Positions 7,408 to 12,099 are shown, counted from the first letter of the stretch. The stretch: 64,000 bases of DNA from Escherichia coli (GCF_045037415.1 NZ_CP173438.1); one strand, 5' to 3'. Numbers and translations: made by a program. Notes: generated from the sequence alone by a model not told the origin.

Positions 7408-9393
7408 ATGAGTACCACAACACGTAAATTTAAAACCGTTATCACCGATACGGGTGCCAAAAAATTAGCTCAGGCAGCCGCGCCAGATGGTAAGCCTGTC
7501 CGCCTGACTCATATGGCCGTGGGCGACGGTGGCGGCACGTTGCCCACACCAGACAGTAAGCAGACCCGTCTGGTGCATGAGGTGTGGCGACATACTGTTA
7601 ATCGCGTCATCCTGGACGCAACACATCAGAACCGCATTATTGCGGAGCTGGTTATTCCTCCTGAAACGGGCGGATTCTGGATCCGGGAAATTGGTGTATT
7701 TGATGAGCACGGCGATTTAATCGCGGTGGGCAATACTGCCGAAAGTTACAAGCCAGCCGTTGCCGAAGGGTCCGGTCGTGCACAAACATTTCGCACCATT
7801 CTGACCGTATCCAGCACTGCCACCGTGGTGCTTACCGTGGATAACACCATGGTGATGGCCACAGTGGATTACGTGGATGACAAACTGAAAGAGCATGAAC
7901 AGTCACGACGTCACCCGGACGCCTCGCTGACCGCAAAAGGCTTTGTTCAACTCAGTAGCGCCACTAACAGCGTGTCTGAAACGCAGGCTGCAACGCCGAA
8001 AGCAGTAAAGGCCGCGTATGACCTTGCTAACGGTAAATATACTGCGCAGGATGCCAGCACGACGCGAAAAGGCCTTGTCCAGCTCAGTAGCGCCACCAAC
8101 AGCACGTCTGAAACGCAGGCTGCAACGCCGAAAGCAGTAAAGGCCGCGTATGACCTTGCTAACGCAAAATATACCGCTCAGGACGCCACGACGGCACAAA
8201 AAGGGATAGTCCAGCTCAGTAGTGCCACCAACAGCACGTCTGAAACACTGGCCGCGACATCGAAAGCTGTTAAGGCGGTAATGGATGAAACGAACAAGAA
8301 AGCGCCCTTAAATAGTCCTGCACTGACCGGAACGCCAACAACACCAACTGCGCGACAGGGAACGAATAATACCCAAATCGCAAGCACGGCTTTCGTTATG
8401 GCTGCGATTGCCGCCCTTGTAGATTCGTCACCTGATGCACTGAACACGCTGAACGAGCTGGCTGCGGCGCTGGGCAACGACCCGAATTTTGCGACCACCA
8501 TGACTAACGCGCTTGCGGGTAAGCAACCGAAAGATGCCACCCTGACGGCGCTGGCCGGACTTACTACTGCGGCAGGCAAGTTTCCGTATTTTACGGGGAA
8601 TGATGTCGCCAGCCTGGCAACCCTGACAAAAGTCGGGCGGGATATTCTTGCGAAATCGACCGTTGCTGCCGTTATCGAATACCTCGGTTTACGAGAACTC
8701 GGCACAAGCGGGGAGAAAATACCGTTACTCAGTACAGCGAATACCTGGACCAATCGACAAACATTCAGCGGTGGCCTTTCTGGGGAACTGTCCGGCAATG
8801 CCGCTACTGCAACAAAGCTGAAAACAGCACGAAAAATTGCTGGAGTTGGTTTTGATGGTTCTAGCGATATTTCAATTAGTGCCAAAAATGTCAATGCATT
8901 TGCACTCCGACAAACAGGTAATACTGTTAATGGTGATACATCCGTTGGATGGAATTGGGATAGTGGTGCATATAACGCCATGATTGGTGGTGCATCTGCA
9001 TTAATTCTTCACTTTAATATAAATGCTGGTAGCTGTCCTGCCGTACAATTCCGTGTGAATTATAAAAATGGTGGCATTTCCTACAGGTCGGCTCGTGATG
9101 GTTATGGGTTTGAATTAGGTTGGTCAGATTTCTATACCACGACACGAAAACCTTCAGCGGGAGATGTTGGTGCATATACGCGGACAGAATGTAACTCAAG
9201 GTTTATTACAGGTATTCGCCTTGGCGGTCTGTCATCTGTTCAGACATGGAATGGTCCCGGCTGGTCTGACAGGTCAGGTTATGTCGTTACGGGTTCAGTT
9301 AACGGAAACCGTGATGAATTAATTGATACAACACAGGCAAGGCCAATTCAGTATTGCATTAATGGGACGTGGTATAACGCGGGGAGTATTTAA
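7408..9393 (+). CDS. tail fibre protein (P2 gpH / Mu S-like), current-orientation C-terminus
   Basis: 661 aa; conserved N-terminal region, three tandem ~40-aa phage tail-fibre repeats, C-terminal part lies inside the invertible segment. Confidence 0.85.
   Translation: MSTTTRKFKTVITDTGAKKLAQAAAPDGKPVRLTHMAVGDGGGTLPTPDSKQTRLVHEVWRHTVNRVILDATHQNRIIAELVIPPETGGFWIREIGVFDEHGDLIAVGNTAESYKPAVAEGSGRAQTFRTILTVSSTATVVLTVDNTMVMATVDYVDDKLKEHEQSRRHPDASLTAKGFVQLSSATNSVSETQAATPKAVKAAYDLANGKYTAQDASTTRKGLVQLSSATNSTSETQAATPKAVKAAYDLANAKYTAQDATTAQKGIVQLSSATNSTSETLAATSKAVKAVMDETNKKAPLNSPALTGTPTTPTARQGTNNTQIASTAFVMAAIAALVDSSPDALNTLNELAAALGNDPNFATTMTNALAGKQPKDATLTALAGLTTAAGKFPYFTGNDVASLATLTKVGRDILAKSTVAAVIEYLGLRELGTSGEKIPLLSTANTWTNRQTFSGGLSGELSGNAATATKLKTARKIAGVGFDGSSDISISAKNVNAFALRQTGNTVNGDTSVGWNWDSGAYNAMIGGASALILHFNINAGSCPAVQFRVNYKNGGISYRSARDGYGFELGWSDFYTTTRKPSAGDVGAYTRTECNSRFITGIRLGGLSSVQTWNGPGWSDRSGYVVTGSVNGNRDELIDTTQARPIQYCINGTWYNAGSI
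7936..8290 (+). repeat. three tandem ~120-bp in-frame repeats inside tail fibre gene (phage tail-fibre repeat motif ..VQLSSATNS.SETQAATPKAVKAAYDLAN..)
   Basis: Direct comparison of DNA 7936-8055, 8056-8175, 8176-8290; copies 1 and 2 nearly identical, copy 3 diverged. Confidence 0.8.
8672..8697 (+). other. gix/hix-like 26-bp invertase recombination site (left)
   Basis: TTATCGAATACCTCGGTTTACGAGAA; matches the Mu gix site as I recall it at about 22/26 positions; lies at outer end of left inverted repeat. Confidence 0.55.
8672..8812. repeat. inverted repeat, left copy (IR-L) of invertible tail-fibre segment
   Basis: About 97% identical to reverse complement of 11305-11445 (three mismatches over ~130 bp by eye). 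Confidence 0.8.
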
Positions 9394-9395
9394 CG

Positions 9396-9929
9396 ATGAT
9401 GCACTTAAAAAACATTACTGCTGGCAACCCTAAAACAAAAGAGCAATACCAGCTAACAAAGCAATTTAACATCAAATGGCTTTATTCAGCTGATGGAAAA
9501 AACTGGTATGAGGAACAAAAGAATTTCCAGCCAGACACTTTGAAAATGGTCTATGACCATAACGGCGTTATTATTTGTATTGAAAAGGATGTTTCAGCAA
9601 TTAATCCGGAAGGCGCAAGCGTCGTTGAATTACCTGATATTACAGCAAATCGCCGGGCTGATATTTCGGGGAAATGGATGTTCAAAGATGGCGTAGTGGT
9701 AAAGCGAACTTATACCGAGGAAGAGCAGAGGCAACAAGCGGAAAATGAAAAGCAGAGCCTGTTGCAACTTGTCAGGGATAAAACTCAGCTATGGGACTCA
9801 CAGCTACGGCTGGGCATCATTTCCGACGAGAATAAACAAAAATTAACCGAGTGGATGCTCTATGCGCAGAAAGTCGAATCCACAGACACCTCCAGCCTGC
9901 CAGTAACATTTCCCGAACAACCTGAATGA
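9396..9929 (+). CDS. tail fibre assembly protein (P2 gpG / Mu U-like), current orientation
   Basis: 177 aa; paralogous to the minus-strand ORF 9958-10485 (shared N-terminal MMHLKNI.AGN.KT.EQY.LTK). Confidence 0.8.
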   Translation: MMHLKNITAGNPKTKEQYQLTKQFNIKWLYSADGKNWYEEQKNFQPDTLKMVYDHNGVIICIEKDVSAINPEGASVVELPDITANRRADISGKWMFKDGVVVKRTYTEEEQRQQAENEKQSLLQLVRDKTQLWDSQLRLGIISDENKQKLTEWMLYAQKVESTDTSSLPVTFPEQPE

Positions 9930-9932
9930 GAC

Positions 9933-9957
9933 AAGGCCCGATAACGGGCCTTAATTT
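9933..9957. terminator. bidirectional hairpin between convergent tail-fibre assembly genes
   Basis: AAGGCCCGATAACGGGCCTT followed by T-rich run. Confidence 0.45.
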
Positions 9958-11272: not shown

Positions 11273-11304
11273 ATTGCTTATTTTCCTGGCAGTTTTTAAT
11301 TTTG

Positions 11305-11445
11305 CAGCTGTAGAAGCATTGCCGGATAGTTCACCAGAAAGGCCACCGCTGAATGTTTGTCGATTAGTCCAGGTATTCGCTGTACTGAGTAACGGTATTT
11401 TCTCCCCGCTTGTGCCGAGTTCTCGTAAACCGAGGTTTTAAATAA
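11305..11445. repeat. inverted repeat, right copy (IR-R)
   Basis: Reverse complement nearly identical to 8672-8812. Confidence 0.8.
11420..11445 (-). other. gix/hix-like 26-bp invertase recombination site (right)
   Basis: TTCTCGTAAACCGAGGTTTTAAATAA; reverse complement matches left site at 23/26. Confidence 0.55.
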
Positions 11446-11481
11446 TGGCCGTTTCTGGCCTGCATGGCATGATTTGCGCTT

Positions 11482-12099
11482 TTGGACGGGAGATTCAGTG
11501 TGCTGATTGGCTATGTAAGGGTATCAACAAATGACCAGAATACAGACCTGCAACGAAACGCTCTTGTTTGTGCAGGATGTGAACAAATATTTGAAGATAA
11601 ATTAAGCGGGACAAAGACAGACCGACCGGGATTAAAACGCGCTTTAAAGCGCCTTCAAAAAGGTGACACGCTGGTTGTCTGGAAACTGGATCGCCTCGGG
11701 CGAAGCATGAAACATCTGATTTCTCTCGTCGGGGAACTACGGGAGCGAGGGATTAATTTTCGCAGTCTGACCGACAGCATAGACACATCTTCTCCAATGG
11801 GGCGTTTTTTCTTCCACGTGATGGGTGCCCTGGCTGAAATGGAACGTGAATTAATTGTTGAACGTACACTGGCCGGGCTGGCGGCAGCGCGCGCAAGGGG
11901 GCGCACAGGCGGACGTCGACCGAAGCTGACAAAAGAACAGCATGAGCAAATAGCAAGGCTAATCAAAAACGGGCACGACAGAAAACAACTGGCAATAATT
12001 TACGGCATTGGCACATCGACGATTTATCGTTATCACCCTGTAGGCGATATACAGACTGAAGAAACAACCGGGCAGACTCAGGAAAATGAAAACCGCTAA
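11482..12099 (+). CDS. serine recombinase DNA invertase (Gin/Pin/Hin/Cin family); true start may be GTG at 11500 (giving MLIGYVRVS...)
   Basis: Very strong match to Gin/Hin family: LIGYVRVSTNDQN.DLQRNAL...GDTLVVWKLDRLGRS...FHVMGALAEMERELI.ERT.AGLAAAR; C-terminal HTH. Confidence 0.92.
   Translation: MDGRFSVLIGYVRVSTNDQNTDLQRNALVCAGCEQIFEDKLSGTKTDRPGLKRALKRLQKGDTLVVWKLDRLGRSMKHLISLVGELRERGINFRSLTDSIDTSSPMGRFFFHVMGALAEMERELIVERTLAGLAAARARGRTGGRRPKLTKEQHEQIARLIKNGHDRKQLAIIYGIGTSTIYRYHPVGDIQTEETTGQTQENENR

Follow-up and report, generated by a model that had tools for sequence, protein, structure and literature searches.

An invertible tail-fibre segment, very probably a Gin/Cin-type switch, in the P2-family prophage Phi1 of Escherichia coli ST131

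Our analysis of a 64,000-nucleotide stretch of Escherichia coli DNA (NZ_CP173438.1, GCF_045037415.1; hereafter the window) indicates that the ST131 prophage Phi1, a member of the P2 family, very probably carries at its tail-fibre locus a Gin/Cin-type switch that works by site-specific inversion. The switch is real but ordinary, having been known for precisely this locus since 2014, when Forde et al. (PLoS One 9:e104400, PMC4134206) described an invertible tail-fibre segment in Phi1 and showed that it flips. The segment was given there as 2,773 bp with the same adjacent invertase, and both identical 26-mers appear in Table 3 of that paper as Phi1_5prime and Phi1_3prime. Their sites at c961070..961095 and 958322..958347 correspond to window positions 8672-8697 and 11420-11445 (window x = 969767 - x), the window matches the EC958 chromosome at 100%, and the locus itself shows no difference from that of EC958 Phi1. 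What is added here beyond the 2014 study is a genome-wide count of the two orientations, the identities of the tips, and a comparison with Mu gin, P1 cin and P2 H.

The carrier adjoins serS and is a P2-family, Xuanwuvirus-like prophage, with the closest phage classified in the Peduoviridae, genus Xuanwuvirus. In RefSeq, the identical region of EC958 is annotated with a P2-type structural gene set, comprising head genes (portal, terminase, GPO scaffold, P2-family capsid, gpM and head completion), tail genes (tail protein X, baseplate V/W/J/I, sheath, tube, GpE and tape measure) and the regulators late control D and ogr. The order of genes departs from that of canonical P2, in that the FI-FII-E-T-U block (12128-17713) lies on the strand opposite to H and G; this opposite-strand F operon characterizes the Xuanwuvirus lineage and is compatible with membership in the Peduoviridae. 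The FI-U tail block was also considered as a second invertible segment and rejected, as no inverted repeat flanking it was found and the 64 kb hold no further gix-like sites.

The anatomy of the segment, the in-frame fusion of the alternative tip and the family to which enzyme and sites belong are directly observable at the locus, whose features are as follows (window coordinates).

7408-9393, plus strand: tail-fibre gene H, whole (ORF list).
7408-8685, plus strand: constant 5' part of H, 426 codons (ORF list; 'tail fiber protein' in RefSeq).
8668-8837, strand not applicable: left arm of the inverted repeat, 170 nt, 89% complementary to 11280-11449.
8672-8697, plus strand: left 26-bp crossover site, gixL-like, TTATCGAATACC-TC-GGTTTACGAGAA, central dinucleotide at 8684-8685.
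8686-9393, plus strand: expressed variable tip, 235 aa, the last 165 aa 88% identical to Mu S' (the G(-) tip).
9396-9929, plus strand: assembly gene of the expressed tip, collinear with Mu U' (nucleotide match to Mu 88.9%).
9933-9952, plus strand: terminator-like G+C-rich hairpin between the converging cassettes (a consensus match only).
9958-10485, minus strand: assembly gene of the silent cassette, collinear with Mu U.
10487-11431, minus strand: silent alternative tip, 314 aa, without a start codon of its own (ORF and in-silico flip).
11420-11445, plus strand: right 26-bp crossover site, gixR-like, TTCTCGTAAACC-GA-GGTTTTAAATAA, central dinucleotide at 11432-11433.
11500-12099, plus strand: Gin-family serine DNA invertase, 199 aa, GTG start, catalytic Ser9 (homology, Pfam).
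11518-11589, plus strand: stretch homologous to the P1 cin recombinational (Fis) enhancer, at gene nt 19-90, with 55/72 positions identical to the annotated P1 enhancer.
12089-12118, minus strand: terminator-like hairpin over the invertase stop codon (a consensus match only).

Both 26-bp sites lie where the preliminary description, made from the sequence of the window, had placed them, in inverted orientation at the outer ends of the inverted repeat, and they share an architecture of two 12-bp half-sites round an asymmetric central dinucleotide. Alignment of the 26-mers with known sites, which that description had proposed, identifies them as gix-like: the left site agrees with Mu gixL and the right site with Mu gixR at 22/26 positions each, the GA/TC centre being shared, and the reverse complement of the left site agrees with P1 cixR at 23/26 (counted by eye). 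A scan of the 64 kb returned these two matches only, both for the site itself and for a relaxed gix-type pattern, where 0.00 (exact site, up to three mismatches) and 0.21 (relaxed pattern) would be expected by chance. The 170-nt repeat contains a 70-bp block, 8681-8750, that is identical in both arms, and it extends inward by 330 nt at 72% (8845-9174 / 10943-11272). The '~130-bp near-perfect' repeats noted earlier fit this 170-nt, 89% repeat with its near-perfect inner part. All coordinates of the preliminary description are confirmed, and its interpretation is supported throughout.

The crossover point coincides with the end of the constant part of H, after residues ...VIEYL, and up to VIEYL this part is 75% identical in amino acid sequence to canonical P2 H. 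Its 426 codons agree with the ~425 aa anticipated for the constant N terminus. The layout is that of the Mu G and P1 C segments, in which a constant 5' part lies outside and two promoterless 3' parts, each with its assembly gene, lie inside; the assignment of the gene at 9396-9929 to Mu U' was worked out from the positions of the nucleotide match. Two head-to-head cassettes had been proposed, the silent one startless but in frame through the right repeat arm (IR-R), and this arrangement is borne out by the ORFs and an in-silico flip. The silent tip ORF is open through IR-R and meets its stop just beyond the right site. In-silico inversion and frame arithmetic join it to the 426-aa constant part in one continuous fibre of 740 aa, so that the two are in frame.

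The two tips are 80% identical over the first 163 aa of the silent tip and diverge after these ~163 shared residues. The last 152 aa of the silent tip share 86% identity with H tips from several Peduovirus phages; for the silent tip and canonical P2 H the identity is 40%. A Mu S-like silent tip had been expected; this was rejected, the identity to Mu S being 51% over 83 aa and the Peduovirus H tips being closer. It follows that the switch alternates a P2-group tip with one of the Mu S' type. At the nucleotide level, the cassette region shares 88-93% identity with the segments of Mu (G), P1 (C), P7 and D108, in agreement with its earlier reading as a mosaic host-range module. Judged from their sequences, the two tips may confer distinct receptor specificities.

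A Gin/Hin-family invertase had been placed 40-55 bp beyond the right site, and the gene found there starts at the RefSeq GTG (11500) after a gap of 54 nt, with an in-frame TTG at 11482; the spacing from right site to invertase start, 80 nt, equals that of Mu. The amino acid identity of the protein is 85% with Mu Gin and 72% with P1 Cin. Its first 120 residues, the catalytic domain, agree with Gin at 118/120 positions, whereas the DNA-binding domain is only ~59% identical to that of Gin. The invertase matches 4m6f and 3uj3, chains from crystal structures of Gin, with E=3e-100, and Pfam recognizes a Resolvase domain (E=2e-50, residues 3-135) followed by HTH_7 (E=1e-12, residues 138-180). The N terminus, MLIGYVRVSTNDQ, aligns residue for residue with Gin and includes the serine of YVRVST, inactivation of which would have spoken against the switch; the PDB chain 3uj3 carries Ala at the Ser9 position, where the window carries Ser.

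Over its first 110 nt the invertase gene does not differ from Mu gin (100% identity). An enhancer had been predicted within the first ~200 bp of the gene, and the stretch homologous to the P1 enhancer, at 11518-11589, is a good candidate for it on grounds of sequence homology. By analogy with the related systems, inversion is predicted to be Fis dependent. A crude G-N13-C scan for Fis sites 48 bp apart gave one weak pair, centred at 11552 and 11600, that falls only in part within the enhancer-homologous stretch; the enhancer assignment is based instead on conservation with Mu gin and the annotated P1 enhancer. An eLife 2013 paper on the Hin enhancer describes the geometry in general terms, the enhancer being ~100 bp from hix, and gives no gin coordinates.

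Both orientations of the segment exist in nature, with the junction where it was predicted. At least 80% of the query was covered in 135 complete E. coli genomes for the orientation of the window and in 131 for the allele inverted in silico; among the matches listed for the inverted allele, 40/40 were 100.0% identical over 4,713 nt, so that at least 40 complete ST131 genomes carry it. EC958 itself is represented in both states at the same serS-adjacent prophage, assembly HG941718 having the window orientation and CP138232 the inverted one. Sets of isolates with matching names and accession series are likewise split by orientation (S2/S4/S5/S7 versus S3/S6/S9, 1162T7 versus 1162C, and p11A versus p4A). 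None of the observations speaks against inversion itself, but the perfect matches locate the crossover to the 70-bp identical block at 8681-8750, not to the central dinucleotide itself. Detection of both orientations by long reads, which the preliminary description had regarded as decisive, was already achieved by Forde et al. 2014 (PMC4134206) and is reproduced here from public assemblies: in that study, both forms were seen among PacBio reads long enough to cover the complete 2.8-kb segment, with ~50% of reads per orientation within one culture and with adapter/hairpin artefacts checked.

In the proposed mechanism, invertase dimers would bind the two inverted 26-bp sites, and a Fis-bound enhancer in the 5' end of the invertase gene would, by homology with Gin and Hin, aid assembly of the synaptic tetramer. 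The tetramer is expected to cleave both sites at the central GA/TC via Ser9, turn one half by 180 degrees and religate, so that bases 8686-11431 would be inverted. Because the segment would include neither the late promoter nor the first 426 codons of H, each orientation would join the same shaft to one of two tips and place the matching assembly gene downstream of that tip. The Mu S'-like tip and the U'-like chaperone would be expressed in the orientation of the window, and the Peduovirus-H-like tip and the U-like chaperone in the inverted orientation. With two tips available on one shaft, a lysogen population would therefore yield virions with two host ranges. Catalysis is probably due to the local copy of the invertase rather than to a paralogue acting in trans, although ST131 has other prophage invertases and similar sites (Forde et al. 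2014, PMC4134206).

Some five places per ST131 genome match the module, and if the invertase of another ST131 prophage flipped the segment in trans, the local gene could be dispensable or inactive. Phi4, with a truncated invertase and near-identical sites, still inverts (Forde et al. 2014, PMC4134206), and trans action therefore does happen in EC958. However, the reverse direction, with the Phi1 enzyme serving Phi4, was proposed in that study, and the gene in the window is full length, has a catalytic domain almost identical to that of active Gin, Ser9 included, and lies at the same distance from the right site as in Mu. We thus regard inversion by another prophage's enzyme as improbable and favour the local invertase.

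Two further explanations would dispense with a site-specific step or with inversion altogether. RecA-dependent homologous recombination between the long imperfect repeats could make use of the 70-bp perfect block and ~170 nt at 89% offered by the arms, and a homologous crossover would land in that 70-bp block, which is also where the perfect database matches put the junction. However, the rates expected of RecA on 70 bp are far below the observed ~50/50 split. A complete Gin-type set of enzyme, sites and enhancer region is also present, and both the ~50% of reads per orientation in one culture and the inversion of Phi4 with a mere 36-bp repeat (Forde et al. 2014, PMC4134206) argue for site-specific inversion, which leaves the homologous route very improbable. 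Inverted repeats of 170-500 bp can mislead short-read assemblers, and both orientations might in principle be assembly artefacts of a segment that is fixed; yet the genomes counted are complete assemblies, nearly evenly split at 135 versus 131, and whole-segment PacBio reads were obtained in both forms with artefacts checked (Forde et al. 2014, PMC4134206), so that this explanation has next to no probability.

Among the known systems, the Mu G segment, with Gin, gixL/gixR and the sis enhancer, shares much with the locus: Gin is 85% identical, the first 110 nt of gin 100%, the sites agree at 22/26 with a GA centre, and the 80-nt spacing is the same. Mu also has two head-to-head tip-plus-chaperone cassettes, and its U'/U region and S' tip are 88.9% identical in nucleotide sequence to those in the window. 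Mu differs in its transposable carrier and Sc constant fibre part, where the window has a P2-family prophage and a P2 H-like part, in its S tip, only 51% like the silent tip over 83 aa, and in the com/mom genes after gin, none of which follow the invertase here. The P1/P7 C segment is alike in its Cin (72%), in its cassettes (90-93% in nucleotide sequence) and in having an enhancer, putative in the window, in the 5' end of the recombinase gene. However, the cix central dinucleotide is AA/TT rather than GA/TC, the segment is 4.2 kb with longer repeats, and cin lies on its other side and is read toward it.

Relatives within the genus Xuanwuvirus (Peduoviridae) include Escherichia phages 503458, 520873, P88 and P884B11, whose records are phage genome entries, whereas the window holds an ST131 chromosomal prophage. 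Phage 503458 matches at 96.4% identity over 85% of the query and has the same gene order, V-W-J-I-H-G being followed by the G'/H' cassette in reverse and the invertase, with U-T-E-FII-FI beyond it on the other strand; it differs by an IS100 in the sheath region. Canonical P2 (NC_001895) had been described as having no such switch, and indeed it is without a second site, an alternative cassette or an invertase, has Z/fun in that slot, and carries FI-FII-E-T-U-D on the same strand as H. That statement can be refined, in that P2 H contains a lone gix-like 26-mer, TTATCGAATATCTCGGTTTACAGGAA, which agrees at 23/26 positions and lies at the homologous codon. P2 thus appears to be a relative in which the arrangement is fixed, and not one that always lacked it.

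The significance of this textbook-type host-range switch, documented for EC958, is small beyond correct annotation. The startless tip ORF ('incomplete' in RefSeq) should not be labelled a pseudogene, and differences between ST131 assemblies in the orientation of this 2.7-kb segment are biological and should not be read as misassembly or phylogenetic signal. The near-even split over ~266 complete genomes illustrates the speed of flipping relative to clonal divergence. There is a slim chance that the switch, besides changing virion host range, serves the lysogen itself, for example if a fibre or chaperone product of one orientation modified interactions at the cell surface or kept other phages from adsorbing, or that the Phi1 invertase is a master enzyme for several ST131 switches. 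A lysogen-level effect of this kind has recently been reported in cryptic prophages of E. coli whose inversions are driven by PinQ and PinR (PMC12529663), and action of the Phi1 invertase on Phi4 was suggested by Forde et al. 2014 (PMC4134206).

A promoter consensus scan of 9880-12200 found none and is uninformative about expression of the invertase, and a PADLOC scan of the invertase and a DUF6645 passenger ORF gave no hits. The terminator-like hairpin at 12089-12118 sits in the short gap before a converging gpU-like tail gene.

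The tail-fibre switch is real, works as the preliminary description proposed, and is already known. The locus corresponds to prophage Phi1 of strain EC958 as described by Forde et al. 2014 (PMC4134206), who reported an invertible tail-fibre segment of 2,773 bp whose two orientations each accounted for ∼50% of the PacBio reads; the long-read test for both orientations suggested earlier has thus been published, with a positive outcome. The 26-bp crossover sites of their Table 3 (c961070..961095 and 958322..958347), converted through alignment to EC958 (window x = 969767 - x), fall exactly on 8672–8697 and 11420–11445, where the predicted 26-mers were found. 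The layout of the locus, in which the silent tip is the start-less alternative to the fibre tip expressed in the window, is as follows.

8672–8697: left 26-bp crossover site, TTATCGAATACCTCGGTTTACGAGAA, exact sequence match
8668–8837 and 11280–11449: inverted repeat of 170 nt (89%), with the crossover sites as its outer ends
to 9393: tail-fibre gene H, 3' end inside the segment
9396–9929, plus strand: first assembly gene
9958–10485, minus strand: second assembly gene
10487–11431, minus strand: silent-tip ORF without a start codon, open through the right repeat, stop just outside the right site
11420–11445: right 26-bp crossover site, TTCTCGTAAACCGAGGTTTTAAATAA, exact sequence match
11500: GTG start of the invertase gene, separated from the right site by 54 nt

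These two sites are the only matches to the site in the 64-kb window at up to three mismatches (chance expectation 0.00), and a relaxed gix-type pattern again returns just this pair (0.21 expected). The left site agrees with gixL of Mu, and the right site with gixR, at 22 of 26 positions in either case, and the GA/TC central dinucleotide is shared, which bears out their description as gix-like. The inverted repeat extends inward by a further 330 nt at 72%, and its two arms are identical over 8681–8750.

The expected head-to-head arrangement of the cassettes is evident from the ORFs. Flipping 8686–11431 in silico yields one continuous fibre of 740 aa, which places the silent tip in frame, through the right repeat, with the 426-aa constant part of H. 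Expressed and silent tips are 80% identical over their first 163 residues and divergent thereafter. The expressed tip shares 88% identity with Mu S' (the G(-) tip) across its last 165 aa. For the silent tip, identity is 86% between its last 152 aa and H tips from several Peduovirus phages, 40% to canonical P2 H, and 51% to Mu S (over 83 aa). At the nucleotide level, the cassette region shares 88–93% identity with the invertible segments of Mu, D108, P1 and P7. Within the constant part of H, three tandem 132-nt repeats (7917–8276; 75–88% identical) encode the 44-aa motif KG.VQLSSATNS.SET.AATPKAVKAAYDLAN, of which canonical P2 H is one unit short (a 44-aa alignment gap).

The invertase gene, starting within the anticipated 40–55 bp of the right site, encodes a member of the Gin family (Resolvase and HTH_7 domains) that shares 85% identity with Mu Gin and 72% with P1 Cin and is matched by Gin crystal-structure chains (E = 3e-100). 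Agreement with Gin is 118 of 120 over the N-terminal 120 residues, which form the catalytic domain, and ∼59% in the DNA-binding domain. The catalytic Ser9 of YVRVST is unaltered (the same residue is Ala in PDB chain 3uj3). Measured from the right site, the gene begins at the same distance as in Mu (80 nt), and its first 110 nt match gin without a difference (98.5% identity over the first 200 nt). In the P1 record, the enhancer for Cin is annotated at gene nt 19–90, and the homologous stretch here (11518–11589) matches it at 55 of 72 positions. Relative to Gin the invertase is a mosaic with 11860–12099 as its divergent part: nucleotide identity to gin stays at or above 95% for the first 300 nt and drops to about 40–60%, in an ungapped comparison, past nt 360, where the DNA-binding domain is encoded. 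The outer half-site positions also deviate from gix, and this may reflect co-variation of the domain with its sites.

Both orientations occur among complete E. coli genomes. At ≥80% query coverage, the allele as found in the window (7408–12120) was recovered from 135 genomes and the predicted inverted allele from 131, the latter perfect over 4,713 nt in 40 of 40 among the matches listed. EC958 itself is represented in both states: its older assembly, HG941718, is oriented like the window, while a second assembly, CP138232, is among the perfect matches to the inverted allele and has the same serS-adjacent prophage with a 740-aa fibre gene. Isolate sets with matching names and accession series are likewise divided between the two orientations. 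The perfect matches confine the crossover to a 70-bp block common to both arms that includes the 2-bp core, a resolution coarser than the core itself.

By homology with Gin and Hin, Ser9 would catalyse exchange at the central dinucleotide and a Fis-bound enhancer would activate inversion. The sequence itself shows that the constant 5' part of H, with its promoter, lies outside the segment, and that each orientation joins one tip to the constant part and places the matching chaperone gene downstream. An assembly artefact is ruled out by long reads spanning the segment (PMC4134206). RecA-mediated recombination between the repeats does not easily account for the flipping of half of the reads within one culture, or for the inversion of Phi4 on a 36-bp repeat (PMC4134206). 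Catalysis in trans by another ST131 invertase has a precedent in Phi4 (PMC4134206), but the window's own invertase gene is intact and we consider this very improbable.

The window is 100% identical to E. coli ST131 chromosomes, including EC958 and JJ1887, and the identical EC958 region is annotated in RefSeq as a P2-family prophage adjoining serS. It carries genes for portal, terminase, GPO scaffold, P2-family capsid, gpM and tail protein X, together with lysis, baseplate V/W/J/I, fibre, sheath, tube, GpE, tape measure, D and ogr. Among phage records, Escherichia phage 503458 (Peduoviridae, Xuanwuvirus) comes closest, at 96.4% identity across 85% of the query, and has its genes in the same order; its sheath gene is interrupted by IS100 (21416–23174 of that record). 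In JJ1887 (NZ_CP014316.1, 955105–960594), IS1A lies inside the matched fibre and invertase region.

Canonical P2 was said to have no such switch, and indeed its record (NC_001895), with H, G, Z/fun and then FI to D all on one strand, contains neither an invertase nor a partner site. The constant part of the window's H and P2 H share 75% identity as far as ...VIEYL, and at the codon homologous to the left site P2 H carries a lone gix-like 26-mer, TTATCGAATATCTCGGTTTACAGGAA (858–883 of our P2 record), matching that site at 23 of 26 positions. Because of this single 26-mer at the ...VIEYL codon, P2 looks, from sequence comparison, like a fixed relative of the switch design.

The tail block FI-FII-E/E'-T-U (12128–17713, minus strand) is opposite in strand to V-W-J-I-H-G, and D and ogr are on the plus strand, whereas canonical P2 has all these genes on one strand. 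The FI-U block is likewise reversed in phage 503458. Since no flanking inverted repeat or additional gix-like site was found for it in the 64-kb window, the reversal appears to be an old rearrangement that is fixed in the Xuanwuvirus lineage.

A 625-aa ORF (2061–3938, plus strand; a DUF6645 protein in RefSeq) that separates the lysis genes from tail gene R had no defence-family match in PADLOC; judging by its location, it may be a passenger (moron) gene. The end of the prophage carries, between ogr and serS, a Hok/Gef-family toxin gene (19473–19613, plus strand; coordinates mapped over from the RefSeq annotation of the EC958 region), with no Sok or hok RNA in Rfam at the gathering threshold. 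An orphan mini CRISPR array (34915–35002), with no obvious cas genes nearby in the window ORF list, lies just downstream of a tRNA at 34784–34868, its repeats on the minus strand.

34975–35002, minus strand: perfect 28-nt CRISPR repeat (Rfam CRISPR-DR4, 50 bits)
34915–34942, minus strand: degenerate repeat copy, with a 32-nt spacer between the two copies
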